The notes under the pieces are model-generated. The model had not been told where the DNA came from. It did not search any database and saw nothing but the letters and a program-made list of their open reading frames with translations. Positions 1 through 34,843 of a stretch of DNA of 64,000 nucleotides are shown here, one piece after another. Source of the stretch: a bacterium (lineage in GTDB: Bacteria > UBP15 > UBA6099 > JAJRTR01); the NCBI GenBank assembly GCA_024278215.1, contig JAJRTR010000204.1, positions 1-64,000 of the forward strand, read 5' to 3'. Position 1 is the first letter of the stretch. Each line of letters starts with the position of its first letter. The position numbers were made by a program, and so were the translations under genes.

Positions 1-1597
1 AAGTATCTATACAATTGCCGGTATTACAGACAAAATCATCAGCGTATATTGTTCCATCAGTACTTCCGACGCAGGCGTTGCCGTCGTTGTCTATACATAA
101 GAATCCATCGTAGTTGAGAATGTCGTAGTTGCCTTCCACGTAGATGTCGCCACTGAAATTCGCCGTGCTGGTGCTGTAGGCCCAGTGGAGGACTTCGGTA
201 TCCACGCCCGCGTCGCGTCTGTATATGGAAATATCGCCCACGGACATGCCGGACGCGGGCGTGCCGTCGCCGTCGTAGATCATGCCGCCGCCGTAAGTCG
301 CGCTCTGCCCGAGAAACAACCTGCCGGTTCCCAGCGAGGAGCCGTAGGCGGTTATGGACGCTTCGTCGGTGTCTATGTCGTAGGCGTGTATGTCGCCCTG
401 GCCTGTGTCGAGGTTTCCGCCGCCGTCGCCGGTTACGTATAATTCTTCGCCCACTGTCACATAGCCCGTGTTGTTGTCATATATCGCGCCGTCGACGTTC
501 AGGTCGCCGGTCACTTCGAGCGTGTCGCTCACGGTGACCCAGCCGGCCGTGTTCTGTATCATCCCGCCCGTGTTGTTGAAGAGAATGTCGGCGCCGCCAC
601 TCATAGTGAGGTTGCCGGTCATCGTGTCGCCCGCCTCGTCGACCCATATATCCGTGACACTCTGGAGATAGCGCCCGTCGGCGTAGCCCAGGTTGAGCGC
701 GTCGTCGTTGCTGTTCGGATTCGCGACGCCTTCTATCCTGTTTGTGCCCATATTCAGTATGCCGCTCATCGTGTCGCCCGCGGTGAGCACATAAATATCC
801 TCGATTTCCGTAGCGTTGAGGCAGTCGGTGCAGCCGTCGTTGACATATCTGGCGTCCGCATAGTCGCGGTCCATAGCATGTGTGCCGGCTGTGGGGTCAG
901 CTACGTTGTCGATGGTGTTTCCGTTCATGTTGAGCGTGCCGCTCATCGTGTCGCCCGCATCGAGCACATACTGCGGGTGGTCGTCGTCGAGCAGTCCGGA
1001 GAGAGAGCCGTGGTCGATACCGCCCGCCGAGGCTGTAATAGTAATCGTATTCGCACCGTCATTCGGTGTTATCGTGATACCACTGCCCGCCACCAGGTCG
1101 ATGTTGCCGCCGTCGTTTGTCACACCGTCCACGCTGCTCACTACATTCACCAGCAGGTCCGCCGCCGTCAGCGTGTTGTCGGTGACCTTGGCCGAGTTGA
1201 CCGTGTTGTCCGCGATACTTATCGCATACATCGCGTAAGCGACGCCCGTAAGCTGCTGCCTCGGCGAGTAGGTCGTGCCGTCCACAGTAACTTCGAGCCA
1301 CAGGTCCAGCGTCCAGTCCGCGTCCGAAAGCGGATCGGCGACAGAGCCAAGCACAACGCTGAACAGACCGTCCGTTACCGACACGGTCACACCCGTCTGG
1401 TCCCATTCGAGGGTCCCGCCGGTTGCGGCATCGTAAATCTTGAAATCCATCGTCTTATTGCCGTCGCTCAGCGGCACGCCGTTACTGTCCGTGAGCCGGC
1501 CCTGATAGTTCAGCTTCGGAGTGACCGCAGCCGCGAATGCAATGTTTGAAGCAAGAACAAACATAACAATCATCAGAATCCCTATTTTGTTTTTCAT
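1..1597 (-). CDS. Secreted tail-fibre/adhesin-like protein (runs off the left window edge; missed by the ORF track)
   Basis: Manual translation from ATG 1597 (GGGAG RBS): MKNKIGILMIVMFVLASNIAFAAAVTPKLNYQGRLTDSNGVPL..., open to base 1. Has a signal peptide, three GDTM(S/T)G repeats, DDDHPQY and neck-like DALNLGYAD motifs. Confidence 0.8.
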   Translation of the reverse strand, partial: MKNKIGILMIVMFVLASNIAFAAAVTPKLNYQGRLTDSNGVPLSDGNKTMDFKIYDAATGGTLEWDQTGVTVSVTDGLFSVVLGSVADPLSDADWTLDLWLEVTVDGTTYSPRQQLTGVAYAMYAISIADNTVNSAKVTDNTLTAADLLVNVVSSVDGVTNDGGNIDLVAGSGITITPNDGANTITITASAGGIDHGSLSGLLDDDHPQYVLDAGDTMSGTLNMNGNTIDNVADPTAGTHAMDRDYADARYVNDGCTDCLNATEIEDIYVLTAGDTMSGILNMGTNRIEGVANPNSNDDALNLGYADGRYLQSVTDIWVDEAGDTMTGNLTMSGGADILFNNTGGMIQNTAGWVTVSDTLEVTGDLNVDGAIYDNNTGYVTVGEELYVTGDGGGNLDTGQGDIHAYDIDTDEASITAYGSSLGTGRLFLGQSATYGGGMIYDGDGTPASGMSVGDISIYRRDAGVDTEVLHWAYSTSTANFSGDIYVEGNYDILNYDGFLCIDNDGNACVGSTDGTIYADDFVCNTGNCIDT

Positions 1598-1903: not shown

Positions 1904-1929
1904 GATTTCTTTGTGAGAAATCCGGGTTA
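1904..1929. repeat. 26-bp dispersed repeat (family 3); exact inverted copy at 51239-51264, partial copy at about 40017-40036
   Basis: GATTTCTTTGTGAGAAATCCGGGTTA here; TAACCCGGATTTCTCACAAAGAAATC at 51239. Confidence 0.75.
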
Positions 1930-2517
1930 TTTATATTGCAGTTTCTCTCGCAAAGAGAGCGATGCGAATACAATTCCAAAAGCGATGACACCACCTAGAA
2001 AACCGAAAAGAATATGAGTCCCAAGAGCGTTCCATTTACCGAAAATGAGTGCCCATGAAAAAGTTCCCGTCCATGTTTTTACCATCGCATGAACAATAAA
2101 TCTCAGTGCGTTGGCGGCGGCTCCGATTCCTCCCCAGGATACACCGGTCAACCATGTGCTTTCATATTTTCTGTAAATGAGATCCACTATGAACCCGGCG
2201 ATAAAGTATTTCCCTACAAGCCCTATGCCTGCTCCGAATCCTATGGCACTGGAAAAGAACAACCATGTGGTTGATCCGGCCACGAGCCCCATGACAGTTC
2301 CCGCCCCCTTGCCCATGCCATAGTGGCGGTTGAGCAACAACAGCGCCATCCAGTATATTCCGGAACTACCTGGAATCCGTAAACCATGAGACGCCAGAGC
2401 CTGTCTCGTCATGACAAGCCCTATGGAAAAAAGAAAAGTAATTATTATCCCGCGCAACACTGAAGGGGATACCGATTCATCTGTTATATTTCTTACGCTT
2501 GCTGATGATAACTTCAT
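1927..2517 (-). CDS. ECF-transporter S-component-like membrane protein
   Basis: About 196 aa with 5-6 hydrophobic helices. Motifs IPGSSGIYWMALL, GAGTVMGLVAG and KYFIAGFIVDL. GAGGAG RBS before ATG 2517 (start uncertain). Confidence 0.65.
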   Translation of the reverse strand: MKLSSASVRNITDESVSPSVLRGIIITFLFSIGLVMTRQALASHGLRIPGSSGIYWMALLLLNRHYGMGKGAGTVMGLVAGSTTWLFFSSAIGFGAGIGLVGKYFIAGFIVDLIYRKYESTWLTGVSWGGIGAAANALRFIVHAMVKTWTGTFSWALIFGKWNALGTHILFGFLGGVIAFGIVFASLSLREKLQYK

Positions 2518-3199
2518 AGCTTCCAACTCCTCTGCCGTTATTTTTTGCAACTTTTAATATAATCAGCCCGTTTTTCAGCTCGGGCCGGACCCATCCCATC
2601 GTGTTGACTTTCGTTTCCGGGGCAAGCGTCTGCCCGTCGGAACAGACAACCTCATCTATCCCCTGTTCCAACAGGTCCGCTACTGTTACCGTTTCTCCCA
2701 GTTTCCGGGCATCATTCAAGTCAATGAATCGTCCGTCATCGCCGGACGCGCGCAGAGCGCACGATGAGAGTGCCCCGATGATTCCCTGTCCATTACCTCC
2801 GTGCTGAGTGAGGCTGATACCGGCAGTCGCTGCGAGTTCGATTGCTGTTTCCATCTCGAGAACTATATTCTGTGCATCCCTTGCATATCGCAGTACATCG
2901 GCGCCAAGCTGCGCCTCCCCGGCAATACACAGTCCCGGGTCGCTTCCCGAAGCGCTCTCGGATTCCAAAAAATCGACTGCCGTATCTTTGACTTCCGATA
3001 TGTTTTCTTCAGGCACATCAAGCACCATACATGCGCCACTGTTGTGGGAAGTGAACGGGATATCGGGATGTATGAGAAACTGATGGCGTGTCACCCCGAG
3101 GCAGGGGTAAGCCAGACGGCGGGCAAGGCGTCTTGCCATGTTTCCAGTGCCTCGGCTTTCCTCGTTGTCGGTATCGTCTATGCCAATAAAATATTTCAT
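2477..3199 (-). CDS. TiaS-catalytic-domain-like protein (GIDDTD family), lacking tRNA-binding domains
   Basis: GIDDTDNEESRGTG, HPDIPFTSHNSG, SDPGL and GQGIIGAL motifs parallel the N-terminal half of archaeal TiaS. 240 aa; GAGGAG RBS. Confidence 0.75.
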   Translation of the reverse strand: MKYFIGIDDTDNEESRGTGNMARRLARRLAYPCLGVTRHQFLIHPDIPFTSHNSGACMVLDVPEENISEVKDTAVDFLESESASGSDPGLCIAGEAQLGADVLRYARDAQNIVLEMETAIELAATAGISLTQHGGNGQGIIGALSSCALRASGDDGRFIDLNDARKLGETVTVADLLEQGIDEVVCSDGQTLAPETKVNTMGWVRPELKNGLIILKVAKNNGRGVGSYEVIISKRKKYNR

Positions 3200-3220
3200 T
3201 GGAACACTCCTCATTCACGA

Positions 3221-5197
3221 TCAGTTGAAGTTGTAGCTGAATCCTGTTCTCCAGGTGAATCCGGGAGCCGGGAATCCATCGCTTTTTTCATAGTTTTTGT
3301 CCAGAATGTTTTTCAGTGTAACGAACGCTTCGGAGTTGTTATGGATTTTCTTCTTGATGTTCATGTTGATAACAGTGATGGGTGGAATAGACTGAATGTT
3401 GTTGTTATCGTCGTAATAAACCTGGGTGGATAGATACTGTCCTGAAAGATTCAGTTGCCATTCGTGAGGCAGATCGAAATACATTCTCAAGTTGAGCGTG
3501 TTCTTCGGTCTGTACTGCAATGCGCTGATAGTCGTCGCCGGAGACTCGTCTTCGGCATCCAGGTAAGTATAGCCTATCGAGCATTTTGGGCCGTCGAAAC
3601 ACACACCGGCATAAACTATCTCACTACCGGTTATTTTCGTCGAAACGATGTTCGCATAAGCCGCTTTCCTGCTCGGCTTCTGTATCATGTCGGAAATATC
3701 ATAGCGGAAGATTGAAATATCCAGCGCGGATGATTTTCCAGTAGCGAGATTCCAGTTGAACTGAAGGTTGTCGGATTTCTGAGCGCTGAGAGAAACATTG
3801 CCGGCGTTGGAATCATACAGGTCACGCAGATTGGGGAAGCGCCGTTTTTTTGCGAAAGATACATTTAGTGTTGATCGGGTGCCGGCGATGTAGGAAATAC
3901 CGATCTGCGGGTCGAAGCCGTCAAGCCGCCTGCCTGTCGTCAGGCCGTCCGCAAAGTACGGATTGAAAACGTGAAAAGCCGCTCCGGGTGTTACCGACAG
4001 TCTGTTGCCGGCAGCTATCTCCGCCTCCGCCGCCAGGCTCATAGTCGAGGTTTTCACCAGAGTTGCCGAGGCCGTACTTTTTGCTATAGAGCGCATTTTG
4101 TCGCGTTTTATGTCCAGCCCCCACTTTACAATGTCCCCGCGGGCCGACACATGTGTACCGTGAAGAACAACCCCCAGGGAATCAATATCCCGAATTTCCT
4201 CGTCGAACTGTGAAGATTTTTTACCCGGTGTCACGAGAGTCGTGTAAGTATCATCGACATAATTCATGAGCGAGTAGTACGAATCGGCACGGTAAACTTT
4301 CGTGCGGATAGTGTTGCGTTCATTCAGGTTCCAGTCGGATGTAAAATCGATAAAATGATTATACCAGTCGTCCAGAACCTTGAATGTGGCATTCTTTGCG
4401 CCGACTTCCGGGGGAAGCGCCTTTTCGTTGTAAAAGCCCTGAAAGTTAATGGAGTAATTGGCGGCACCGTAATTATTGGAATATTTCAATGAAACCGCAT
4501 TTTTATCAAACCAGCTTCCGGTGCGCAGGTCGGATGTCTGGTTCAGAGCCGGTTCAAAATCGTCTGAAAGCGAAAAACCGTCACTTTTCCTTCGAGAAAC
4601 CGTGACCGCGAGGCTTTCGTCGTCCCATGCCAGCGCGGCTGCGCCGGAGACACGATACGTCGACTCATCTCCGGCGGCAAGTTCTAATCTGCTGTAACTG
4701 TCGTCGGGGCGCCGGGTGATGATATTGACCGTTCCGCCCATTCCGTTGGGGCCGTAGAGCGGGGAAGCCGTTCCTCTGGTAACCACTATTTTCGACACAT
4801 TGTCCAGCGGCAACTGATCCATGTCGATCTGCCCGTCCCATGGAGAATAGATTGGCATTCCATCTATAAGCACAGACACCTCCCGCTGGCGGAATCCCCT
4901 CATGCGCAGGTAAGCCTCACCCCTGCCTCCCCTGCGGGTGAACATTCCCGGCATCAAATTCAGTGCCTCGTCGACAGTCGTTGCACCTATGGCTTCAAAA
5001 TCAGCTTCGTACAGCGTCACTACATCGTATACCTTGCCGTAATCCGGTGCTGGTGAGGTAACCACAACCTCACCCAGGTCTACCGGCTCCGATTTTTCCG
5101 ATGCACCGGCCACTGTCGCCAACACCAGTATTATTACCGTCGAAACAACTGCTGTTCTGCAAATGCCGATCAAACTGTTCGGAATGAAACTTTGCAT
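3221..5197 (-). CDS. TonB-dependent outer-membrane receptor
   Basis: Signal peptide, TonB box (EVVVT), plug motifs (LIDG.P, IVVTRGTASPLYG..GMGGTVNIIT), and C-terminal NILDKNY...GFSYNFN. Start placed at ATG 5197 after GGAG. Confidence 0.95.
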   Translation of the reverse strand: MQSFIPNSLIGICRTAVVSTVIILVLATVAGASEKSEPVDLGEVVVTSPAPDYGKVYDVVTLYEADFEAIGATTVDEALNLMPGMFTRRGGRGEAYLRMRGFRQREVSVLIDGMPIYSPWDGQIDMDQLPLDNVSKIVVTRGTASPLYGPNGMGGTVNIITRRPDDSYSRLELAAGDESTYRVSGAAALAWDDESLAVTVSRRKSDGFSLSDDFEPALNQTSDLRTGSWFDKNAVSLKYSNNYGAANYSINFQGFYNEKALPPEVGAKNATFKVLDDWYNHFIDFTSDWNLNERNTIRTKVYRADSYYSLMNYVDDTYTTLVTPGKKSSQFDEEIRDIDSLGVVLHGTHVSARGDIVKWGLDIKRDKMRSIAKSTASATLVKTSTMSLAAEAEIAAGNRLSVTPGAAFHVFNPYFADGLTTGRRLDGFDPQIGISYIAGTRSTLNVSFAKKRRFPNLRDLYDSNAGNVSLSAQKSDNLQFNWNLATGKSSALDISIFRYDISDMIQKPSRKAAYANIVSTKITGSEIVYAGVCFDGPKCSIGYTYLDAEDESPATTISALQYRPKNTLNLRMYFDLPHEWQLNLSGQYLSTQVYYDDNNNIQSIPPITVINMNIKKKIHNNSEAFVTLKNILDKNYEKSDGFPAPGFTWRTGFSYNFN

Positions 5198-5290
5198 GAC
5201 AGGACACACTCCACCATAAAATATTTCTCCGTGTTGCCCGCATACGAGGTTGAGGAAACTGGCCCGGAACGTATGTAAAGAGTCCGCCTT

Positions 5291-5333
5291 TTCGTGCCCA
5301 AACAAATGCGGTTTGAGCACGGCACACAGAGTT
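5291..5333. repeat. REP-like hairpin repeat; second copy at 46729-46796
   Basis: TTCGTGCCCAAACAAATG(C/A)GGTTTGAGCACGGCAC is shared by both sites and folds as a stem-loop. Confidence 0.7.
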
Positions 5334-5391: not shown

Positions 5392-5457
5392 TCAGGGGAA
5401 ATAAAAAAACGGCTGCCGCCTGATACACGCGCAAGCCGATATGGTTTTTTGTTTCAT
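5392..5457 (-). CDS. Putative 21-aa leader peptide MKQKTISACACIRRQPFFYFP
   Basis: The ATG lies 7 nt after the GGAG that forms the riboswitch P1 3' strand, and the ORF spans a terminator hairpin. Confidence 0.5.
   Translation of the reverse strand: MKQKTISACACIRRQPFFYFP
5403..5438 (-). terminator. Intrinsic terminator/attenuator in the receptor leader
   Basis: CGGCTTGCGC-GTGTATCAG-GCGGCAGCCG followed by T7 on the minus strand. Confidence 0.65.
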
Positions 5458-5463
5458 TTACTG

Positions 5464-5560
5464 TCTCCTTTCCAAGCACGGGAGGTCGGCGGATTTCCCC
5501 GCCGGCCCTACAGCCCTGGAACCTTAGTCTTTTTCGACCTTAGGCCATCAGGGTCGGAGA
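5464..5560 (-). promoter_or_regulatory. Moco RNA motif riboswitch, P3-less (Wco/Tuco-type) variant
   Basis: Minus strand TCTCC-GA-CCCTG..CCTAAG-GTC GAAAAA GAC-TAAGG..CAGGG-CTGT-AGGGCCGGCGGG GAAA TCCGCCGACCT-CCCGTGCTTGG-AAA-GGAGA. P1, P2 with tetraloop receptor, P4 with GAAA loop, P5 and the conserved CCTCCCG..TGGAAAGG tail are all present. Confidence 0.88.
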
Positions 5561-5567
5561 TTTTCAG

Positions 5568-5596
5568 AGTGTAGTGTCATTATCTTCAAATGTCAA
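5568..5596 (-). promoter_or_regulatory. Sigma70-type promoter for the riboswitch/receptor operon
   Basis: TTGACA-N17-TACACT; the predicted start site near 5561 falls immediately before riboswitch P1. Confidence 0.8.
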
Positions 5597-7224: not shown

Positions 7225-9531
7225 TTAACCGTTTCGAGTGCGCAGGAGCCGTGCGACCGGTCCGAGAAAGGCGGCGAACACTGTCAGACAGGCCGGCAAC
7301 AGCAGTCTGAATGAACCGGCCACGCCGAGCAGCGGGAAAAGGATCGTACCCATAAGCAACGCTCCCGTACAGGCCCCGAACAAATCTGCGGCGTACAGGA
7401 AACCCGCCGCGCCGCTTTCCGTCATTCCTTTCCGCACGTTCCACAACGATACGGCACACGGATAAATAAATCCTGGTGCCGCACCCCCCGCAAAGATGAG
7501 AAATGTGATCGCGGCGGCATCGAATATCGTCGATCCGCTGCTCAGGTATGTATATGCGTAACCTGCGGCGGCGACCACCGCCAGGCCACAGGCCGCCGCG
7601 GGCAGGCTCCATGCCGCGCCGACACCGCGCCCCCGCGCGACACGCGCCCCGGCCGCCCCGCCGACCGCCGCGCCGCCCAGAAATGCCGCCGTCAGCAGTC
7701 CCAGGTATTGATATACAATTCCGAAAACCGTCTGGAAGTGAAAAATCAGCACAAGTTCCACAAGTATTCCCGTGAAGCCGACAATGAAGACTCCGCCGGA
7801 CATCGCGACATGGCTTCCGGGTCCGCCGGAAAAACCAGCCGCGAAAAGAATGGCGGCGGCAAGCAGGAAGTAAATCGTGATGTTTCCCGTTACAATACGC
7901 CTCGCCGAGCCGATAATCCTGTATGCCGGAGACCTGAAATATGTGGAAGTAAAAACGGAATGCAGAAAAACACTAACAGGCCGTTTGTCGGAATCCGGCC
8001 GCACATCGTCCCGGCTTGTAAGCCATTGGAAAGCGGCCCCCATTTTATCGTCCGTCATTGAATATTCCATTATGTCGTCGCTGAACTGCGACAGCGCGAA
8101 CCCGATCCGGCCGGCGTCGAAATAATACGCCGCCGAATCCGCGCTGAAATGTGCGGACTTTATTCCTCTGGCATTGAAACGCGCGGCGGCCTTTTCCGCG
8201 GAGATTTCGAGTTGTCTTCCGGGCGACCACAGAAGGAATGTCTTCGGCCCCGGAATGAGCAGTGGCATGGCGGCATCGAGTTGTTTGTATGTCGCGATTA
8301 TGCTCCCGAGCAGCGCGACTTCGGCGCTCCCCATATAGTTTTCAGTAAAGGGTACACTGGTTGCGGCGAGCCCCGATTCCGACAACCTGGCGCGCAGCAG
8401 CGAGAGGAACTCGACTGTAAAATAACGGTTTTGCTGAAGAGTGCGCGGCGCATCGGCTTCAATGATTATTACATCATATTTACGATCCGTTTTCGCCAGG
8501 AAGCGACGCGGGTCCCGCACGATTATGTCGACGCGCGGGTCGTCGTAAATCCACTTCAGATTATCGGGACACAGCCGCCTTCTCACAGCCTGCATCCGTG
8601 GATCGAGTTCCACCACGTCGATTTTTTCGATGCCGTGCTTGAGCGCTTCGCTGACGGTTGTCGCGCTTGCGCCGATTGTCATTACCCGGCGCGGGGCGGG
8701 ATGCGCCAGCAGGGGTATATGCGCGGAATACTCACCGAATACACTGTCTGGCACAGCGCCCGTGAATTGGCCGTTCGAGAAGATGCTGTACTGCTCGTCA
8801 TCTTTCAGCACTGTTATGTTGCCGTAGCCGGATTCCATGCTGAATTCGATGTTCCTGCCCCAGGCCGTTTCACGCGTGTGTTTTTCGACCCGGGCTATCC
8901 AGAACGGCGAAGAAATAAGCAGTACGGCAGCTACCGCGAGAACAACATTCCGGGTCGCGCCGCTTAAATTGAATGTTCCGGCGATAATGACGGCGAGTCC
9001 CGCAAGTGCGGCACACGAGGTCGGCGACAGCAGTTGCACGAGCAACAGGCTGAAAGTGACGCCCCCGACGACAGAGCCTGCCGTGTCGAGAGAATAAACG
9101 ATGCCCGCGCCGCCCCGCCCGCCTTCATCTTCGGCAGACCTGCATAAAACGGAGAATAGAATGCCTGTGAATACACTCACCGGCCCGAGCGCGATAAGCG
9201 CGGCGAGCAGCGTCGTTCCTACCGGTATCATTTCACCCTGGTGAAAACCCAGAAGCTGCCCCTGGCAACGCGCCCAGAAAATGGAAAAAGGTATCAGGAG
9301 CCCATACACGATAAGGAGCCACGCGATCGCAGAGGGCGGGGGTTTGAAAAACTTCACCGCAAGCCCCCCGGCCGTGCTCCCGACACCCACCCACAGCAGC
9401 CACGCGAAAAACACCAGCGCTATCGACAGTTCGTCGCCGCTGCTCGCGACCATCAACTCGCGAGCGAGCAACAACTGCGCTACCATCGCCCCCGCTCCGA
9501 CTGTAGCTATGGTCAGTGCTCGTTTATTCAA
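7225..9531 (-). CDS. Fused membrane/spermidine synthase-like protein
   Basis: Transmembrane blocks flank a soluble domain with AHIPLLAHPAPRRV, VVELDP and YDVIIIE; also YAADLFGA motif. Confidence 0.85.
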   Translation of the reverse strand: MNKRALTIATVGAGAMVAQLLLARELMVASSGDELSIALVFFAWLLWVGVGSTAGGLAVKFFKPPPSAIAWLLIVYGLLIPFSIFWARCQGQLLGFHQGEMIPVGTTLLAALIALGPVSVFTGILFSVLCRSAEDEGGRGGAGIVYSLDTAGSVVGGVTFSLLLVQLLSPTSCAALAGLAVIIAGTFNLSGATRNVVLAVAAVLLISSPFWIARVEKHTRETAWGRNIEFSMESGYGNITVLKDDEQYSIFSNGQFTGAVPDSVFGEYSAHIPLLAHPAPRRVMTIGASATTVSEALKHGIEKIDVVELDPRMQAVRRRLCPDNLKWIYDDPRVDIIVRDPRRFLAKTDRKYDVIIIEADAPRTLQQNRYFTVEFLSLLRARLSESGLAATSVPFTENYMGSAEVALLGSIIATYKQLDAAMPLLIPGPKTFLLWSPGRQLEISAEKAAARFNARGIKSAHFSADSAAYYFDAGRIGFALSQFSDDIMEYSMTDDKMGAAFQWLTSRDDVRPDSDKRPVSVFLHSVFTSTYFRSPAYRIIGSARRIVTGNITIYFLLAAAILFAAGFSGGPGSHVAMSGGVFIVGFTGILVELVLIFHFQTVFGIVYQYLGLLTAAFLGGAAVGGAAGARVARGRGVGAAWSLPAAACGLAVVAAAGYAYTYLSSGSTIFDAAAITFLIFAGGAAPGFIYPCAVSLWNVRKGMTESGAAGFLYAADLFGACTGALLMGTILFPLLGVAGSFRLLLPACLTVFAAFLGPVARLLRTRNG

Positions 9532-26382: not shown

Positions 26383-27855
26383 ATGAAAGTCCTTCTGATA
26401 GACCCGATGCGGATCAACCTCGAGACGTATCTTATAATCCCGAATCTGGGTGTCGGGTACCTCGCAACGGCATTGCGACGGGCGGGCCACGAGGTAACGA
26501 TCTGCAACGCCGCGCGTGATTCGCTCACTCCCGAGCAGGTAGCTCAGGATGTCGCCGTCAACCGCTATCACGCTGTCGGCATAACGATTTTCACACCCTA
26601 TTTCACATCGACCGAAAAGTATGCCGGGGCGATCCGGAAGCGGTTCCCCGAAGTGTTGCTGCTCGCGGGTGGCCCGCACGCGATTTTCGAGCCGGAGGAA
26701 GTTTTCGACTTCATCCCGGAGTTCGACTATGCCTGCACCGGCGAGGGCGAAGAAACAGTGCCGATGCTGCTTGCCGAACTCGAAAAAAACGATAATCCAC
26801 CGGTCGAAACGCTCGAGAAAATTCCAAACCTGTGTTTCCGCGAAGGCGACGGATACCGACGCACCGAACGGAAGTTGATAAAAGACATAAGGCCGCTGGA
26901 CCTGCCCGCATGGGACCTGATCGAGCCCCACAAGTTCGCCCTCTATCCCAACGGCATCTTCACGAAACGAAAACATGTCGCGCCGATGGTGACGTCGCGC
27001 GGATGTCCTTTCCCGTGCAGGTTCTGCGGTGCGGGCCGGGCGATGGGCAAAAAGGTCAGGCACCGCGAACCGGAGAGCCTGATCGAGGAGATAGAACTAC
27101 TGCGCGACAAGTACAACATCCACGAAATCCAGTTCATGGACGACAACTTCTCTGTGGACCGCAATTTCGTGCTGCGTGTGTGCGAACTGATGATCGAGAA
27201 GAACCTGGGTGTCGACTGGGGCTGCCCGCCGGGTGTGCGGCTCGACTGCATAGACGACGAAACTGTCGGCATGATGCGGCGCGCGGGGTGCTACTCGACA
27301 TCGGTCGGCATCGAGTCGGGCTGGCAACGTGTGCTGGACCTGATGAAAAAGAAGATCAAACTCGAAAACGTCGAGCCGAATATAGCGATCCTGCGAAAAC
27401 ACGGCATCCGCATCACCGGCCTTTTTATTCTCGGCTTCCCCGGCGAGACTGTCGAGGAAATGCGCGAAACCGTGAAACTCGCGCTCAAGCTGGATATCAA
27501 TCGCGTGAACCTGTTTCCGTTCACACCCTTCCCCGGCAGCGAGATGTACGACAAGCTGAAATCCGAAGGCAAACTCCAGGGCCTCAGCTACGACGAAACG
27601 TATATCCACAACCTCAGTTACTGCGACGAATCCATATCTATTAAGGACCTGATAAAAGTCCAGCGTATGGCGCACTTCAGGTTCTACCTGAGGCCGAGAA
27701 TCATCTGGGGTATCCTCAAGGAGATACATTCAGTTACACAGTTGAAGATTGTGCTTCAGAGAGCGATGAAAATAATCTTTCCGGGGCGTGTCGGACAGCA
27801 TTACCGGGATAATGAAATATCGCGCGCCGCCAACAGTGGACCGAACAATCACTGA
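26383..27855 (+). CDS. Cobalamin-binding radical SAM protein
   Basis: N-terminal B12-binding domain (GGPHA, GEGE); SRGCPFPCRFC; GIESG. Confidence 0.93.
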   Translation: MKVLLIDPMRINLETYLIIPNLGVGYLATALRRAGHEVTICNAARDSLTPEQVAQDVAVNRYHAVGITIFTPYFTSTEKYAGAIRKRFPEVLLLAGGPHAIFEPEEVFDFIPEFDYACTGEGEETVPMLLAELEKNDNPPVETLEKIPNLCFREGDGYRRTERKLIKDIRPLDLPAWDLIEPHKFALYPNGIFTKRKHVAPMVTSRGCPFPCRFCGAGRAMGKKVRHREPESLIEEIELLRDKYNIHEIQFMDDNFSVDRNFVLRVCELMIEKNLGVDWGCPPGVRLDCIDDETVGMMRRAGCYSTSVGIESGWQRVLDLMKKKIKLENVEPNIAILRKHGIRITGLFILGFPGETVEEMRETVKLALKLDINRVNLFPFTPFPGSEMYDKLKSEGKLQGLSYDETYIHNLSYCDESISIKDLIKVQRMAHFRFYLRPRIIWGILKEIHSVTQLKIVLQRAMKIIFPGRVGQHYRDNEISRAANSGPNNH

Positions 27856-27896: not shown

Positions 27897-29477
27897 TCAA
27901 ATCTCCACTCTGAATAATCCTGTGGTTCCAGCTACATAAAGGGCTTTTTCATGCGTCGAGTACAGGAAATAACGCGGGAACGGCAGGTAAAAAGTATCGA
28001 GCAGTTTCAACGTGTCAAGGTCGAGAACATCCACACGACCGGAAATCTGGCAGCCGACAAACAGCCGCCGCTTCACGGGGTCGACCGCCAGCGCGCGCGC
28101 TCCCAGTCCAGACCTGACAACATTCTCAACCTTCAGAGTTTTCTCGTCAATTACTGCCACTATCGACCTTAACGGTACACTTTGGAACAGGCGCCGAGTG
28201 TCCGGGTCGCGAATTGTCTCCCACACGAGATAGCCTGTAAACCTGTATCTGATCGGCAACCCGCAACACGGCTGCAGCTCTGTAATAAATGGTCCCATCA
28301 GGCAGCCGGAGACAAACATCCGGGCATGATCATTGTCGATGTCGATCCTGACGACGCCCTTGCCCGCGGGGCCGGGCGGCACCGGAGCGGCGGGCACTTC
28401 GAGCGATGTGCGGTCTATAACGAAAAGATCACCTGTGTCGTCGCAACCGGCATATATCAGATTGCGCCGTGTGTCCACAGCCACAGCGTTCAATTGCGTG
28501 CATCTCTCCGGCGGTATGTCCAGCGCGTCGATCACCTCGAACGGCGATTCCGAAATTATCTGCAATTGCTTTTCAGTGACAGAGTGAATGGCGATGTAAA
28601 ATCTGCCGGGTGCCCTGTCGTAAGCAAGCTGTCTGGGGTATCCGGGCATAGCGAGACTCTTAACACGCTTCAGGGTTTTGCGGTCGACGAGGTCTACGGA
28701 CGTGTTGGACTTGTTGAGATAAACTATATGCCTGCCGTCCGACATAAACTCGATGCCCGCGCCACCGCCTATAGCGCTGTTTGCAGATATTTTCAGGTCG
28801 CCGCGTCCATCGTTTATGTTCGGGAACCATGTGAAATACATTATTATGATTGCGCCGCCGTAAAACACGTATGCAAATTTGTTGCGCGCGATATTTCTCC
28901 ATAATGTTTTTTCGCCGAATTTGAAATTTAGAAGCGGGTATATCCTTATGGCGATAAGAAGCGTGACGAATAATACGAGCGTTGTCAGGGAAACAAGTAT
29001 ACCGGTTATGAGCAAAAGAACGACCGCGAATAATAATGTCGGCGATACGTAGGAAACGATGATATTGGCTACAACACCTTTGTTTACGATCGTCATCTTT
29101 TCACTGGCGACTATCGAAATAGAAGCGAAAACAAGCACACATGCGGAGAGCCGCAGGTCGAGACACAGAGCGACTGTGAATCCTGCGAGACAATATAAGA
29201 TGAATAAAATATCCAGCCCCGATATTGCCGTGTGCCACTGTCTGCGCGCCCATAGGCCGATGCTTGAGACGCCGCCGAGCTTCATTAATACTGACAGAAT
29301 AATAACCGCGAAAAGCAGTACAACAAATAGTATCACGCTGCCGAATATGCCGTTAAAAACAAATGCGAATATATAATCGACGAAAGGCCACGGCGCACTA
29401 AGCACCACGAGCGCAATGAAACAGAGCATCAGTACAAGCAATGTGTTTATAATGATTTTCGTTACTGCCGTTTTCAT
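27897..29477 (-). CDS. Membrane protein with C-terminal YncE-like beta-propeller
   Basis: About seven N-terminal TM helices followed by AVD...RLFV / VID..TL.V blades. Confidence 0.7.
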   Translation of the reverse strand: MKTAVTKIIINTLLVLMLCFIALVVLSAPWPFVDYIFAFVFNGIFGSVILFVVLLFAVIILSVLMKLGGVSSIGLWARRQWHTAISGLDILFILYCLAGFTVALCLDLRLSACVLVFASISIVASEKMTIVNKGVVANIIVSYVSPTLLFAVVLLLITGILVSLTTLVLFVTLLIAIRIYPLLNFKFGEKTLWRNIARNKFAYVFYGGAIIIMYFTWFPNINDGRGDLKISANSAIGGGAGIEFMSDGRHIVYLNKSNTSVDLVDRKTLKRVKSLAMPGYPRQLAYDRAPGRFYIAIHSVTEKQLQIISESPFEVIDALDIPPERCTQLNAVAVDTRRNLIYAGCDDTGDLFVIDRTSLEVPAAPVPPGPAGKGVVRIDIDNDHARMFVSGCLMGPFITELQPCCGLPIRYRFTGYLVWETIRDPDTRRLFQSVPLRSIVAVIDEKTLKVENVVRSGLGARALAVDPVKRRLFVGCQISGRVDVLDLDTLKLLDTFYLPFPRYFLYSTHEKALYVAGTTGLFRVEI

Positions 29478-29519
29478 TGCGTGTCCGTTTCTATGTAACA
29501 ATCGGTGCCCGGCTCAACA

Positions 29520-29709
29520 TAGTGTCGCGTCAAGAAGAAAAGCCGTAAGGAAGGTCACCGTAAAAACGATAAACAAGGGCGGGGTCACCGTACCCCGCCT
29601 CAACTTGTGCCTGCAAAAACCGTGTTCGCGAGAAATATGATCAGGCGGAGTACGATGCCACCGCTCTTGTCTACATATCTTGCGCATTTAGAAGTGTGAC
29701 ACAACACTA
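29520..29709 (+). mobile_element. MITE family 2 copy
   Basis: Ends TAGTGTCGCGTCA / TGACACAACACTA; the right end overlaps the TAG of the adjacent gene. Confidence 0.75.
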
Positions 29710-31125
29710 GTTCCATTTCGCGCTCAGAAAAGACAACGCGTCTTTTATCAGGCCGCCCGTCCTGAGCGAATGAAAAAACCGTTTTATAATGTATTTCGGC
29801 CTGAGATACACACGCCTGAAGGCGAGTTTATACAGTTCCTCGATCTCGTCCCAGCCGAGATTCGGATGATCGTACAGCGGCACGTCCGTCCGGTGAAAGA
29901 TGTACCTGCTCCAGTCTTTCGTCCTGACGAGCCCCCGTGAATCCAGTTGCTCGAACATTACTGTGCCGGGCAGAGGAACGGCGATATCGAACTTGCTGAT
30001 TGTCATATCGAGTTCGATGGCGAAATCAATCGTGTCCATGATCGTAGCGCGCGTGTCCTCGGGAAGCGCGACAATAAAGAAGCCGAATGTTTCGAGACCG
30101 TGTTTTTTGCATAGCGACACGGCACGCCGAATGTCGTCCTTGTTCAGGCCCTTGGAAACACTGTCGAGCACAGCGTCGTTTCCCGATTCGACGCCTAAAG
30201 CGACCTGGTAGCAGCCGGCGCGCCTGAAAAGGACGCACATTTCATCGTCGACACGGTCGGCGCGTATGCCGTTGAACAGGTTGAAAGGAATCGTCACATT
30301 GCGGTCGATCATCAGGCGGCATATCTCTTTCGCGCGCGCGAGATTTGTCGTGAAGCCGTCGTCCACGATATGAATCTCCCTGAAACCGTGCCGCCGTATC
30401 ATGTACTCTATTTCGTCGACCACGCGCTCCGCCGACTTCGCGCGGAACCGCCGACCGAATATCGTTTTGTCGCAATATATACAACCGAACGGACACCCCC
30501 TGCTCGTTTCTATATAACCGCCCGGTCGGCGGCGTTCTGTAAGGTGCGACATGTGGTATCGCCCGAGATCGAACATTTCCCACGCCGGCATCGGCAGCGA
30601 GTCGAGATCATCTATCAGCGCTCGACGCTCCGCCGACACTTCGCCGTCTGCGCCACGAGATGCAACGCCAGGCACAGCAGCCGGAGCGTCGCTATCGAGC
30701 AGATCGCAAAGTGTGAAGTCCGACTCGCCCAGCGCGACATAATCCACACAGTCTGTCGCGAGTGTTTCCTCCGGGAACCGTGTCGCGTGCACTCCTCCGC
30801 ATATAACAGTTGTCTCGGGAGAAATCGCTTTTACTGCGGCCGCGATGTCCATTGCGCCGCGCCATGTGGGTGTTATAGATGTAATACCCGCCGCATCGGG
30901 CTCAAACTCGAGAATTGTTTTCCTCAGCAACGCGCCGGTGTGTTCTCCAGCGATATCCGCGACATCGAGGTCCAGCACGCGCGGACTGTGGCCGCACGCG
31001 GCGAGTGCTCCGCCAAGGGCGGCAAGCCCGAGCGACGGGAGGACCGGCGCGCCGACTTTAACATTGGTTTCAAGGTATACCCGGCGTGTGCCAGGCGGAT
31101 TTATAAGGAGGATTCTTTTCTTCAT
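29707..31125 (-). CDS. Cobalamin-binding radical SAM protein
   Basis: GGVHAT, GESD; SRGCPFGCIYC; GVESG. Confidence 0.93.
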   Translation of the reverse strand: MKKRILLINPPGTRRVYLETNVKVGAPVLPSLGLAALGGALAACGHSPRVLDLDVADIAGEHTGALLRKTILEFEPDAAGITSITPTWRGAMDIAAAVKAISPETTVICGGVHATRFPEETLATDCVDYVALGESDFTLCDLLDSDAPAAVPGVASRGADGEVSAERRALIDDLDSLPMPAWEMFDLGRYHMSHLTERRRPGGYIETSRGCPFGCIYCDKTIFGRRFRAKSAERVVDEIEYMIRRHGFREIHIVDDGFTTNLARAKEICRLMIDRNVTIPFNLFNGIRADRVDDEMCVLFRRAGCYQVALGVESGNDAVLDSVSKGLNKDDIRRAVSLCKKHGLETFGFFIVALPEDTRATIMDTIDFAIELDMTISKFDIAVPLPGTVMFEQLDSRGLVRTKDWSRYIFHRTDVPLYDHPNLGWDEIEELYKLAFRRVYLRPKYIIKRFFHSLRTGGLIKDALSFLSAKWN

Positions 31126-31146: not shown

Positions 31147-33138
31147 TTACTTGCTGTTTGTCTCCGTCGGTCTGTAATCGCCCCCTGCATCGAGCACCCC
31201 GGTGATCCCTCCCTCCGACTTCAACTTATAACTGTTATAGACATTGAAATACGCGGCAGGTTGCTTTATCGCAATAAAGCCTATCGGATCATTATCGGAA
31301 TCGGCAATCGAAGTTCTGCCGCCGCTGCCGAGCACGAGCGGAGCGAACCCGTGGTATTTCAGCACAGCGCGTCCGGCGGCGGAAGCGCTCACTCGATAAC
31401 ATCGAATGCCGGACCGGTCCGCAACGACAAAGCCGTCACCTTCAATAAACGGGTTCATGTTGAAATCCGCGTACTTGTAGACCTCGAATCGTCCGATAAC
31501 ATTTTGTTTAACAAATCGTCTGCCGATGTCGCCGCCGGTATTGCCAGTACCGCCGAATGTATTCTTACAGGCATCGCTCCAGCAAACGATCCAACGAATG
31601 TAATATCTGTCGAGGGCGGCCGCAAGTTCACTTTCCGAATAGCTGCCTATATCTTTCCCGAGAAATACGCCATCGTGGAAATCGGCGTGATGATGCTTGA
31701 GAAAAAGATATGGATAGGGACCGCCGATGAACTCGCGTCCTGTGATGTCGGACAGCAGTGAGGGGAACTGGCTCTCGCTGTATTTGGGTGGCCTGCCGTC
31801 GCGGTCGTTCCAGCCGGAGTCCTCGAGCATGACGCGCCCGTTGGGTGTAGTCGCGTCGCGGAGATATTGCGCGAGTTGCCGTGTGTCGTCGTCCAGCCGC
31901 TTATCCGTCAGGCGGGTGAAGATAAGATAGGGCATCACGGAAACGGCAAGCAATACTGCAATTGCAACGGTCGCGGCGACAGTCTTCCGCGCCGCGCTGA
32001 TCCTGCCTGCCGCCATCTCACTGAGTGCGGCGACACCGGTCATAGCGGGGATTACGAGAAACCAGTCCATATACGCAATGTATCTCGTGGGATAGAACAA
32101 CGCGGTAAACCACCAGAATGAACCGAAGTATACCTCGCCCATGAATACGGCAACAACAAAGAAAAAGAATGAGGCGAGCGCTCGCTTTCCTGTCTGCCAC
32201 ATCCGGTATAAACCGAACATTCCAAACCAGAGAAGGAAGTTGCGAAGTATGGTATTCGGGACGGTAAGCACCAGTGATTCCGGGCCGGAAATCACCTTGT
32301 GCCCCATGATTTTAGAGAGAGTGAAGTAGTCCTTGAAAATGCGCAGTGGGTCATAACAAAGGCCGTGCGGCGCTTCGGCGAGTGCGACCCGGAACTTCAC
32401 GAGATCGAGAAATGGAATCAGCCAGAACGAATTCACCGCGAGTGTCAGCGCGGCTATAAGTATAAGGTGTACAAGGTATCTTATTTTCAACTTGCGCAGT
32501 TGACACAAGATGATTAAAAGGAACGGCACGCCCAGTATGACAAAAGCTGTTTTATGTGCAAGAAAACAAAGTGGAACCAGCACGTAAAGCTGCGGCAGCA
32601 CACGCCTGTCGTCGGCATCGAAGAGGCGGTAGAAAAGAGAAACGGCGTAGAACGACAGGTGAAAAACGATCAGACCTGCGGGCATCCCCAGCAGCATGAA
32701 TGTCACTGGAAGTCCGGTCCACCAATAGGCTGTAAGAACAATCATCGCAAGGTATCTTTTTGCGCCGACGACACCGAAATTCTTCAACCCGAAAAAGAAC
32801 ATGAACGGTGCCATCGCAACTGAGAACACTGTTGTCGCCAGCAGCACGATGTACTCGGGGACCGGTTGCAGCAGCACAGAAAGAAACTGGAGTATAACAT
32901 TGCTGTTCCATGTAAAATTGAGTGGATAGCCCGCCGAATAGCCCGTATCATATCCCCACATGTTATGGAACGCGGAAAAGAACTCGACCGCCCTGTGCTG
33001 CTGGTAGATCATCAGCGCGTAATCATTGTGCAGCAACGGCCCGGAAGCCGTCGCGCCAAGGTACAGGATCACCCCGAGGTGAACGGCCACAAAAAGGATT
33101 GCGAATCCCTTCAATATGTTTCCGAGTGTTTTATTCAT
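31147..33138 (-). CDS. Polytopic membrane protein (GT-C/YfhO-like)
   Basis: WGYD..YSAGYP loop, about 12 TM helices, and a C-terminal soluble domain (GRVMLED, REFIGGPYP). Confidence 0.6.
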   Translation of the reverse strand: MNKTLGNILKGFAILFVAVHLGVILYLGATASGPLLHNDYALMIYQQHRAVEFFSAFHNMWGYDTGYSAGYPLNFTWNSNVILQFLSVLLQPVPEYIVLLATTVFSVAMAPFMFFFGLKNFGVVGAKRYLAMIVLTAYWWTGLPVTFMLLGMPAGLIVFHLSFYAVSLFYRLFDADDRRVLPQLYVLVPLCFLAHKTAFVILGVPFLLIILCQLRKLKIRYLVHLILIAALTLAVNSFWLIPFLDLVKFRVALAEAPHGLCYDPLRIFKDYFTLSKIMGHKVISGPESLVLTVPNTILRNFLLWFGMFGLYRMWQTGKRALASFFFFVVAVFMGEVYFGSFWWFTALFYPTRYIAYMDWFLVIPAMTGVAALSEMAAGRISAARKTVAATVAIAVLLAVSVMPYLIFTRLTDKRLDDDTRQLAQYLRDATTPNGRVMLEDSGWNDRDGRPPKYSESQFPSLLSDITGREFIGGPYPYLFLKHHHADFHDGVFLGKDIGSYSESELAAALDRYYIRWIVCWSDACKNTFGGTGNTGGDIGRRFVKQNVIGRFEVYKYADFNMNPFIEGDGFVVADRSGIRCYRVSASAAGRAVLKYHGFAPLVLGSGGRTSIADSDNDPIGFIAIKQPAAYFNVYNSYKLKSEGGITGVLDAGGDYRPTETNSK

Positions 33139-34843
33139 TATCTCCGGACAGTTCCTGCGACATGCTTTGTATATATGTCACGCACGAGTCGTCTCCGTCG
33201 CACCCCTTTATCAGCGCGTCGATTATTCCCGCCTCTTTATCCCGGTCGTATCCGCTCAATGCGATTTGCGCAGTTCCGGTTGCGAAGTCATCAGACATAA
33301 TAAGTTTTGCAGCCTTTTCGTAGTCGAAATAACTGTTGACGAACAGATCGAAAAGAAGGGCATCCTTATAACCTGCGTCTTTCAGGCGGTATGCTCTCGC
33401 GTTCACACCGCCCGCGGATGATGCCGCGTCCACCATTCGCGCATGTGCCGCCAGCCATGCCGATATTCTTTCGAGCATCGCCTTTTTACCCGTGTCCTTT
33501 ATTCTTCCCTTCAGCAGTTCCGGTTCACAGTCACGCGGCTCCCTCATGCTGCAATTGTTGAAAACCCACACTCTTTTGCCCATCAGGAACGCTTCTTTCA
33601 GGTTGAACAATTCGTCCTTCACGGCAGCTGCTTCGTTCAACCCCCTGAAATGCGGTCCAAGATCGAGCAGAAGGGCATCGCTCTTCCCGCCGGGGACTCG
33701 CTTTACCGATTTGTTTATACCGGCGTCGTGAAGATAATGTTCAATAAGTGACGTGTCCGCATTCAATGCCGCATCCATGAAAACATAAGAATCCGATTGT
33801 TTGAATTTCGTGGAAGTTTCCGCCGCAAAAACCGATGCAACCGCATCGTTGCTCTCCCGTCGGAGCGATATTGCCGCGACCTGAAAAGTCGTCAGAGCGC
33901 CGAGAACTACCGTCGCGAAAACAAACAGCACCACACCGGCCACAATACGTCCGCCGCCACGGCCCGGCCGGAGCAGCATAACAACTCCTGAAATCAGCGC
34001 GAGTCCTATGAACATCTCAACCGCAACGGCCGTTTGTATCGAGCCGATCGCGGCTTCCGGTTCGGGCAGCAATATGCCCGGCGACAACCCCGCGCCGACG
34101 CCTGTAAAAGCCTTCAGCCATATAAGCAGTCCGGGAATAAAATAGAGAAAAACTTTCAGGAACGCTTTGAGCCCCGCCGCGGATACTTTCCCTCGCCGCC
34201 TGTATTTCAATATGAAAAGAATCGACGCCTGCGACAGATAAAGCGGCAATGCGAAACGGACCGTATAGAGCGCGAGAATTGTAAAGATGAAATACAGTTT
34301 GGAATACTTTTCCGCGCCGAAAGCGAAAACGAATAAAAAAAACAGCATCGAAAAAGCCGCGAGACACAAACCCAGCGGTGCCGGATCGGCGGAAAGTACA
34401 TAAGCCTTCGCCGCCGGTAGAAATATTATTATCAGAAGAGCCGCAGAAACGCCCCGGATAATCCAGGATGATTTCGAATAACTCTTTTCATTTTCAGCGT
34501 CGGCAGTAAACAACCCGACGATTTTCAGACACGCGAAAAACGCGGCGCTCAGAAGAAGCGGCGAAATCAATTGCAATATGTGAAGGTCCGAAGCCTTTCC
34601 GGTGAATACCAGAAAGTGCGCTGGAAGATAATAAAGAGGCATTCTGCCTTCGATTGCAGAGAGCAGGAACGTGATGGAGAAATAATTATTCGCGAAAATA
34701 AATGTCTGTGCTCCGGCTGGTGTAACCGCGTGGCTTTCGGGATAAAGAAGGAAAATCGACACGCAGAATAAAGCGGACATAACTATACAGGACCATAATC
34801 CGCCCCGTTTCCATATAGTTGTTTCAGTGCTTCGCTCGTCCAC
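33131..34843 (-). CDS. Polytopic membrane protein of unknown function
   Basis: About nine TM helices plus a C-terminal soluble region; translationally coupled to its neighbours. Confidence 0.7.
   Translation of the reverse strand: MDERSTETTIWKRGGLWSCIVMSALFCVSIFLLYPESHAVTPAGAQTFIFANNYFSITFLLSAIEGRMPLYYLPAHFLVFTGKASDLHILQLISPLLLSAAFFACLKIVGLFTADAENEKSYSKSSWIIRGVSAALLIIIFLPAAKAYVLSADPAPLGLCLAAFSMLFFLFVFAFGAEKYSKLYFIFTILALYTVRFALPLYLSQASILFILKYRRRGKVSAAGLKAFLKVFLYFIPGLLIWLKAFTGVGAGLSPGILLPEPEAAIGSIQTAVAVEMFIGLALISGVVMLLRPGRGGGRIVAGVVLFVFATVVLGALTTFQVAAISLRRESNDAVASVFAAETSTKFKQSDSYVFMDAALNADTSLIEHYLHDAGINKSVKRVPGGKSDALLLDLGPHFRGLNEAAAVKDELFNLKEAFLMGKRVWVFNNCSMREPRDCEPELLKGRIKDTGKKAMLERISAWLAAHARMVDAASSAGGVNARAYRLKDAGYKDALLFDLFVNSYFDYEKAAKLIMSDDFATGTAQIALSGYDRDKEAGIIDALIKGCDGDDSCVTYIQSMSQELSGDNE

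Follow-up and report, generated by a model that had tools for sequence, protein, structure and literature searches.

In bacteria, the cofactors of molybdenum (Mo) and tungsten (W) enzymes are supplied by ABC-type oxyanion uptake, which is followed by the Moa, Moe and Mog steps. The importers concerned, ModABC, TupABC and WtpABC, use periplasmic binding proteins, and we know of no kinase-type partner for any of them. Vitamin B12 operons can have another layout, with a cobalamin riboswitch, a TonB-dependent receptor and a solitary S-component that belongs to the energy-coupling factor (ECF) type. In this study, a bacterial stretch of 64,000 nucleotides (contig JAJRTR010000204.1 of assembly GCA_024278215.1, positions 1 to 64,000; referred to as the window) was analysed around a gene at positions 2477 to 3199 of its minus strand, the product of which resembles the catalytic TCKD module of the archaeal tRNA enzyme TiaS. 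The operon of this TCKD-like gene is ordered as riboswitch, TonB-dependent receptor, TCKD-like gene, and a gene for a membrane protein resembling ECF S-components (S-like protein), all on one strand. The preferred reading, which we hold at slightly less than an even chance, is that the TCKD-like protein carries out, in the cytoplasm, the ATP-using step of a route for the acquisition of Mo or W, probably of tungsten.

What stays constant across the homologous loci is some Mo/W import device, namely the S-like protein (whether or not joined by an ECF module and a receptor), Tup, Mod, or a MOT1-type carrier, and a Mo/W-type regulator or a cofactor riboswitch often accompanies it. The family probably marks an undescribed step in the bacterial acquisition of W/Mo or of their cofactor. 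It adds a conserved ATP-using enzyme, whose fold is otherwise known only from an archaeal tRNA enzyme, and pairs it with a membrane protein of S-component type that is likewise undescribed; the two stand under regulators of Mo/W type or under a cofactor riboswitch. Searches of the literature library that was used found no publication on the TCKD-like family, and a comparative genomic study of riboswitch regulons lists no cofactor-uptake category for the molybdenum cofactor (Moco) (PMC3766115).

In its layout, the locus resembles the BtuB-BtuM system of B12 uptake: a riboswitch that senses a cofactor is combined with a BtuB-like receptor and with a small membrane protein of putative S-component fold, which in many hosts occurs without an ECF module. 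It differs in the class of its riboswitch (Moco/tungsten cofactor, Moco/Tuco) and in the cytoplasmic kinase-fold enzyme encoded between the receptor and the S-component. Group I ECF transporters (CbiMNQO and NikMNQO) are similar in so far as the S-like gene shares one operon with EcfA/A' and CbiQ-family T genes at 13 loci and belongs to a trace-metal-related regulon. However, the S-like protein has about six helices and no CbiM/NikM family match (PDB code 4M58 was a weak structural match, probability 0.60), it has no CbiN-like partner here, and it is accompanied by an extra soluble kinase-fold protein. With ModABC, TupABC and WtpABC, the TCKD-like gene shares the regulon, the types of regulator and often one operon, whereas the proteins themselves are unrelated.

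The TiaS-type catalytic module

The gene is described by the following row.

2477..3199, minus strand: stand-alone TiaS-type TCKD protein of 240 aa (open reading frame, ribosome-binding site, family models, AlphaFold2 model)

The longest open reading frame (ORF) at this locus is 2477..3214 on the minus strand (245 aa). Since GAGGAG, a strong ribosome-binding site, precedes the ATG at 3199 by 7 nt, the 240-aa form is the likely product. The protein collection contains an identical 240-aa entry (P0001), which together with the ribosome-binding site bears out the gene as it had been drawn from the sequence alone. All four motifs named in that sequence-only reading are present as well: in the numbering of the 245-aa frame, DDTD lies at 13-16, P.IP..S.N at 50-58 (PDIPFTSHN), DPG at 92-94, and G.G.IGAL at 142-149 (GQGIIGAL).

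Family models indicate that these motifs are no chance matches. The NCBIfam model of TiaS (NF040849) matches residues 6-152 with E 1e-10, covering model positions 1-150 of 422 and scoring 40.8 bits against an equivalog cut-off of 600 bits. The Pfam family TiaS_TCKD (PF22641) gives 20.1 bits, which is under its gathering threshold of 27 bits, and it matches 27 of 28 family members at E<=1, with a best E of 8.6e-6. By these scores the family reads as a divergent branch that the PF22641 model barely reaches. The alignment of these 28 members (A1) was used for a profile search and for an AlphaFold model. As a profile against the PDB, it finds TiaS chains at E 7e-13 to 1.5e-11. The model (pLDDT 91.9, pTM 0.90) aligns with TiaS (PDB code 3AMT) with Z 21.6 and a root-mean-square deviation of 1.8 A over 150 residues at 21% identity, while the unrelated folds that come after TiaS reach Z <= 7.7; Foldseek matches the model to TiaS with E 1e-9. 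The structural alignment therefore confirms the TiaS-like catalytic domain that had been proposed. In whole-model structure searches, the N-terminal domain determined most of the result. Several structures of HPPK, a pterin pyrophosphokinase (PDB codes 1CBK, 7MPY, 3MCM and 2BMB), were matched with Z 5.9-6.8 over 106-117 aligned residues, somewhat above other ferredoxin-like matches; HPPK, like TiaS, cleaves ATP to AMP.

When the family is aligned by HMMER with TiaS of Archaeoglobus fulgidus, its invariant columns (D-D-T-D, Thr, Arg, (S)DPG and GxGxIGAL) correspond to D8-D9-T10-D11, Thr18, Arg41, TNPG and GRGLIGAL of TiaS, and when counted from the ATG at 3199, the numbers of D8, D9, T10, D11 and T18 coincide in the two proteins. 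In TiaS, Asp8, Asp9 and Asp11 are catalytic residues, and Thr18 is autophosphorylated. Because the TiaS fold and the GxDDTD, Thr18, Arg41, (T/S)(N/D)PG and GxGxIGAL positions are shared, the TCKD-like protein very probably binds ATP and acts as a kinase of the unusual TiaS type.

The likeness to TiaS (PDB codes 3AMT, 3AMU, 3AU7, 4RVZ and 5XOB; 3U02 is an N-terminal fragment) lies in the TCKD fold of the first ~155 residues. TiaS chains have 402-440 aa, compared with 240 aa here, and the TCKD-like protein lacks the FLD, OB and zinc-ribbon domains, having instead a C-terminal domain and invariant residues of its own. It further differs from the archaeal enzyme in being bacterial, in standing in a Mo/W transport context and in occurring beside TilS in the same genome. 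The C-terminal domain (about 85 residues, ~160-240) is small and beta-rich and matches no recognised family, a Mop/TOBE-like oxyanion-binding barrel being one candidate for its fold; its invariant residues in A1 are Gly161, Arg162, Arg170, Thr205, Arg210 and Pro211. Outside the TiaS pattern, Cys62, Cys96, His44, Gln45, His57, Asn58 and Arg28 are invariant in the family. The claimed absence of tRNA-binding OB and zinc-ribbon domains agrees with the length of the protein and with three further observations: TiaS_FLD was found in only one of the 28 members (E 0.18), no CxxC pair occurs in the TCKD-like sequence, and among proteins of 430-2000 aa a search for a fused form of the family gave one weak TiaS-type match and no fusion.

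Methanogenesis marker protein 11 (TIGR03280) is another TCKD protein without tRNA-binding domains. Positions 134-283 of its model match residues 7-155 with E 6.4e-11, which is on par with TiaS. It differs in an extra N-terminal region of about 130 residues, and the TCKD-like protein scores 41.9 bits against its cut-off of 255.8.

The operon, its homologues and their hosts

The other features of the operon are given below in the order of transcription.

5568..5596, minus strand: promoter-like TTGACA-17-TACACT, which ends at the first base of the aptamer (consensus scan, 10/12 matches)
5449..5571, minus strand: Moco/Tuco riboswitch aptamer RF01055 without the P3 hairpin (72.3 bits against a gathering score of 36, E 1.7e-15, full model length)
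5407..5421, minus strand: terminator-like GC hairpin and T-run, 28 nt past the aptamer (pattern scan and sequence)
3221..5320, minus strand: TonB-dependent outer-membrane receptor, longest ORF 699 aa (Pfam Plug E 4.6e-21, TonB_dep_Rec_b-barrel E 1.9e-22)
1927..2517, minus strand: membrane protein of 196 aa with ~6 membrane helices and an ECF S-component-like model (AlphaFold2 pLDDT 87.9, Foldseek, gene context)

The aptamer aligns with its P3 element deleted and is the single RF01055 match in the assembly of the source genome (4.55 Mb, 95% complete). In the study conducted by Regulski et al. (2008), 58 of 176 Moco RNAs lacked P3, and 17 of the 19 organisms with P3-less RNAs had tungsten-cofactor genes, and this class was proposed to sense the tungsten cofactor (PMC2408646). 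The promoter-like site is suggestive only, since 11 such sites were observed in the region against 5.6 expected. Terminator-like sites numbered 5 against 4.7 expected by chance, and it is the position of this hairpin and T-run that makes a transcription-attenuation platform possible. The best NCBIfam models for the receptor are BtuB-like, all of them far under their cut-offs; translation probably begins at the ATG at 5197, since a signal-peptide-like stretch follows Met42.

The S-like gene begins at the ATG at 2517, with GAGGAG 9 nt upstream, and overlaps the 3' end of the TCKD-like gene by 41 nt. No Pfam family matches its product above threshold; PF09819 was found in 4 of 30 members, with a best E of 1.4e-5. 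The best Foldseek rows for its model are S-components (PDB codes 5EDL, 5KBW, 4TKR, 3RLB and 3P5N), with 5EDL at a query-normalised TM-score (TMq) of 0.55, probability 1.0 and E 0.07. The S-component rows, which include TmRibU, ThiT and RibU, span TMq 0.43-0.55 and probability 0.80-1.0, at weak E-values of 0.07-0.9. A BioY-family S-component gene lies elsewhere in the window (56782-57399, minus strand; Pfam E 3.6e-38), and therefore the organism uses S-component transporters. Two EcfT genes are found on other contigs of its genome. A complex prediction for the TCKD-like and S-like proteins, run without controls, gave a score of 0.01 (mark 0.32) and weighs neither for nor against binding.

The TCKD-like family comprises 1945 proteins at E<=1e-3 in a collection at 90% identity, and 1285 representative clusters at E<=1e-3 in a library at 50% identity, of which 888 remain at E<=1e-10 and 433 at E<=1e-30; nearly all of these representatives have 230-260 aa. 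In five longer members (P0126, P0178, P0244, P0246 and P0256), the extensions are unrelated or of low complexity. A GTDB scan found the family in at least 591 species genomes, and its best 80 homologous loci were surveyed, with marker genes counted within ~6 kb. The genes of these loci come from a crude ORF picking of our own and were clustered by BLASTP, the cluster representatives being annotated with Pfam and NCBIfam. Gene counts for hosts were taken over 50 genomes carrying the family. All of these counts rest on metagenome-assembled genomes, which may be incomplete. One locus flagged as unpublished (L052, genome G035) is one unit in both counts and one row in alignment A2; dropping it shifts each count by at most one.

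The 80 loci come from Planctomycetota, Anaerolineae and other Chloroflexota, Desulfobacterota, Gammaproteobacteria, Bacteroidales, Myxococcota, Spirochaetes, Thermotogae, Syntrophomonadaceae and Omnitrophota. Carriers also include Firmicutes, and one family protein is labelled Thermococcus. A single-protein query of 30 other genomes, one from the family of the source genome and 11 from its order, did not find the gene, which argues for an accessory function in the source lineage.

A hidden Markov model of the S-like protein matches 69 of the 80 loci: 59 matches are flagged as adjacent to the TCKD-like gene, 6 overlap it in another frame, and 4 lie behind ECF genes. Dedicated ECF modules (fused or paired EcfA and a CbiQ-family T) share the operon at 13 loci. 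EcfT is absent from 16 of the 50 hosts, one of them a closed chromosome of 3.13 Mb, so that the link of the S-like gene to EcfA/A'/T is not obligatory and the S-like protein must work without an ECF module in those hosts. Solitary S-components have been documented for BioY and BtuM (PMC11109136). Six apparent TCKD-S fusions from a six-frame scan were rejected because their frame differs from that of the TCKD-like gene.

The 11 loci without an S-like match are informative about what can replace it. The TCKD-like gene follows a regulator and precedes TupA, TupB and TupC at L074, stands at the end of the order TunR-like regulator, TupABC, ModA-like at L028, follows TupA at L070, and has a MOT1-type molybdate carrier nearby at L061. 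It lies beside a TonB-dependent receptor alone at L015 and beside a regulator with helix-turn-helix (HTH) and PBP_like domains alone at L055. Next to it at L002 and L010 is a divergent small gene (cluster C32); L037 and L045 end within 28 nt of it, and no Mo/W-related neighbour was seen at L023.

TonB-dependent receptors occur at 30 of the 80 loci. A Mo/W-type regulator was found at 31, either of the HTH+PBP_like type (24 loci), the sensor domain of which matches the oxyanion-binding end of a MoeA fusion model with E 6.6e-65, or with a ModE N-domain (12 loci; E 3.7e-22). TupA is present at 11-13 loci, MoaA at 10 and MoaC at 7-8, and MOSC+MoCF, FdhD, AOR, a formate-dehydrogenase-like oxidoreductase and a TorD-like chaperone at fewer. 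Taken together, at least one Mo/W marker gene occurs at 47 of the 80 loci, the marker-less loci being shorter on average. The association with Mo/W cofactor loci that the sequence-only reading had called for is seen in these 47 loci and in the riboswitch before the copy in the window.

In a Syntrophomonadaceae (Firmicute) locus (L043) and its near-identical twin (L041), two Moco riboswitches lie within a TCKD-EcfAA'T-S operon; at L043 they occupy 8523-8642 and 5020-5140, both on the plus strand. One precedes the TCKD-like gene, and the other separates EcfT from the S-like gene; L041 has the same arrangement. This operon may be of the same kind as a seven-gene operon of Syntrophomonas wolfei with a triple P3-less arrangement and genes of unknown function (Regulski et al. 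2008; PMC2408646). Downstream of L043 and L041 are surface proteins with Big_5 and Shr-like heme-receptor domains. In Planctomycetota (L026, L035, L045, L052, L056, L064 and similar loci), where no TonB-dependent receptor is found at the locus, the pair is preceded by a DUF1559/N-terminal-methylation pseudopilin-like protein (C9) and a 295-aa protein without a known family (C11). In Bacteroidales, a 310-aa protein without a known family (C8) is encoded between the S-like gene and the receptor. A role in capture that is specific to the lineage is conceivable for C9, C11 and C8.

Of the 50 hosts, 46 have MoaC, and therefore the hosts are mostly pterin prototrophs, with no pattern of auxotrophy. 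The four that lack it are all metagenome assemblies; one amounts to just 1.0 Mb, and one has a near-identical sister genome in which MoaC is present. The source genome of the window encodes two MoaA-like proteins, MoaC, MoaE and several MoeA. Its sole MoaE match (G000:C6:13355-13684, minus strand, locus L085) contains an in-frame TAG, which may reflect two genes, a sequencing error or a broken gene.

Canonical Mo/W ABC importers are likewise common. TupA-like proteins occur in 25 hosts and ModA in 26; 12 hosts have neither, of which 4 have WtpA, so that at least one of the three is present in 42 of the 50 hosts and none, at the thresholds used, in 8. A role of the pair as the sole Mo/W importer is unsupported, the 8 importer-less hosts being about twice the 4 without MoaC, which serve as a rough gauge of assembly gaps. 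The source genome encodes TupA/TupB on another contig and contains four AOR-like genes. AOR-family genes were found in 35 of the 50 hosts, with up to 17 copies.

Candidate functions in metal or cofactor supply

A route for the metal can be pictured as follows. At low levels of the W/Mo cofactor, transcription of the operon would be permitted by its P3-less riboswitch of the Moco family. The receptor would take the scarce W/Mo species through the outer membrane, and the S-component-like protein would take it through the inner membrane, alone or docked on one of the ECF modules of the genome. The TCKD-like enzyme would then spend ATP at its Asp8/Asp9/Asp11-Thr18 site (240-aa numbering), where an oxo group might be phosphorylated by analogy with TiaS. 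Binding of the substrate would fall to the invariant Cys62, Cys96, His44 and His57, together with the arginine-rich domain at the C-terminus. The product would be the imported species in a trapped or activated form, which could be passed on to MoeA for assembly of the cofactor. An anionic, thiophilic substrate would be consistent with the Cys/His pairs and with the many arginines of the C-terminal domain. Tungstate, molybdate or a derivative is favoured over a pterin as this substrate, which is the least certain step of the scheme. The metal reading appears the more economical one because the TCKD-like gene can exchange its S-like partner for oxyanion importers and because the regulators at these loci are of oxyanion-sensing types.

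Several observations weigh against this reading. To our knowledge, no S-component carries an oxyanion; the known ones carry organic vitamins or Ni/Co cations. The S-component assignment itself comes from weak Foldseek E-values (0.07 to 0.9) and from gene context. Since 42 of the 50 hosts have TupA, ModA or WtpA, the pair is not needed as the sole metal importer, and at the Anaerolineae loci TupABC and the S-like gene even stand in one operon, an apparent redundancy if the cargo of both is the same oxyanion. AOR-family genes are absent from 15 of the 50 hosts, so that a role confined to tungsten is unsupported. Riboswitch control as a rule for the whole family was rejected, as only the two near-identical loci L041 and L043 had Moco riboswitches among the 31 loci scanned, and such a riboswitch occurs anywhere in the genome in 12 of the 50 hosts and in none of the other 38.

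Part of this evidence speaks for salvage of the cofactor or its pterin, an alternative that we consider unlikely but serious. Here the receptor and the S-like protein would import cyclic pyranopterin monophosphate, molybdopterin, the Mo or W cofactor, or a dephosphorylated or oxidised form, and the TCKD-like enzyme would re-phosphorylate or re-activate it with ATP, much as vitamin kinases trap imported vitamins. Nearly all known S-component substrates are organic micronutrients. TupABC in the same Anaerolineae operon means that the metal has its own importer there, as it does in the 42 hosts with a canonical one. The pyrimidinone ring that TCKD targets in TiaS resembles the pyrimidinone of a pterin. 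The combination of a riboswitch, a TonB-dependent receptor and an S-component without an ECF module, EcfT being absent from 16 hosts, parallels the B12 system with BtuM, and solitary BioY and BtuM are on record (PMC11109136). The HPPK likeness points the same way and is kept only as a lead, since its Z-scores are within reach of common ferredoxin-like arrangements. The sequence-only reading had likewise proposed a cofactor-processing enzyme, with an imported pterin as its example. The stand-alone TCKD module with its intact catalytic motifs upholds the general idea, whereas a pterin is only a candidate substrate, from which three results lean away: MoaC is present in 46 of the 50 hosts, and the source genome itself has MoaA, MoaC, MoaE and several MoeA; the TCKD-like gene of L028, L061, L070 and L074 stands in tup/mod operons or near a MOT1-type carrier without the membrane partner; and the associated protein regulators are of oxyanion-sensing types. 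If a pterin were handled after all, the route would be the first in bacteria by which a molybdopterin-type cofactor is taken up. It is also conceivable, though quite improbable, that the TCKD-like protein serves as a partner that energises, gates or signals to the S-like protein. It would drive or regulate that protein through ATP or through autophosphorylation of its Thr18 equivalent, for instance where a genome has no ECF module, and would leave the transported molecule unchanged. Such a role would fit the tight coupling of the two genes (the 41-nt overlap and co-location at 69 of 80 loci), the 16 hosts without EcfT, and the invariance in this family of the threonine that is autophosphorylated in TiaS; S-component folds also occur in receptors (PMC11109136). 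However, an energiser would be redundant at the 13 loci that have a full ECF module along with the TCKD-like gene, the gene also occurs without an S-like partner, and a fused TCKD-S protein was not found in the six-frame scan of the loci or among the longer proteins searched. Modification of a cytidine in tRNA or another RNA, as in TiaS, is suggested by the fact that the sole characterised relatives are tRNA(Ile2) agmatidine synthetases, yet it is hardly credible here: the FLD, OB and zinc-ribbon domains that hold tRNA in TiaS are absent, most loci have a context of transport and Mo/W metabolism, and a search of 12 relatives from its own family or order did not find the gene, which is unlike a translation factor. 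The source genome moreover has the bacterial enzyme TilS (N-domain 178.6 bits, cut-off 93.6), so that a role in AUA decoding is not needed and a tRNA role is unlikely.

A more far-reaching reading can be offered only as a tentative and rather doubtful proposal. The TCKD-like protein would be the first known enzyme whose ATP-dependent reaction has tungstate or molybdate as its target, or else the metal-free pterin when the metal is handed over, acting as a 'tungstate kinase' or a nucleotide-driven W/Mo chaperone. Its partner would be the first S-component-type importer of a W/Mo species or of the Mo/W cofactor, and together they would supply a widespread step, so far missing, that links the uptake of the metal to the assembly of the cofactor in anaerobes. 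This proposal, if true, would also suggest a function for methanogenesis marker 11. Handling of the metal in general would mean a new trace-metal trafficking step for the tungsten enzymes of anaerobes. The probability that is left after all of these readings goes to something unforeseen.

Other genes of the window

The rest of the window contains housekeeping genes and the BioY gene, and no further Mo/W genes were seen in it. Directly 3' of the operon, a gene at 2-1597 (minus strand), which runs off the edge of the window, encodes a secreted protein (532 aa within the window) with repeated GDTMSG-x-L-x-M motifs; it has a promoter-like site of its own at 1770-1741. On the other side, the gene at 7225-9531 (minus strand) encodes a protein of 768 aa in which a multi-helix membrane region is fused to a spermidine-synthase-like domain (Pfam E 5.1e-18; 42.2 bits with the NCBIfam model for a fused major facilitator superfamily/spermidine synthase, cut-off 40). 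Further along, two B12-binding radical SAM proteins (26383-27855, plus strand, and 29707-31125, minus strand) flank large ORFs without a Pfam family (27897-29501 and 31147-34843).

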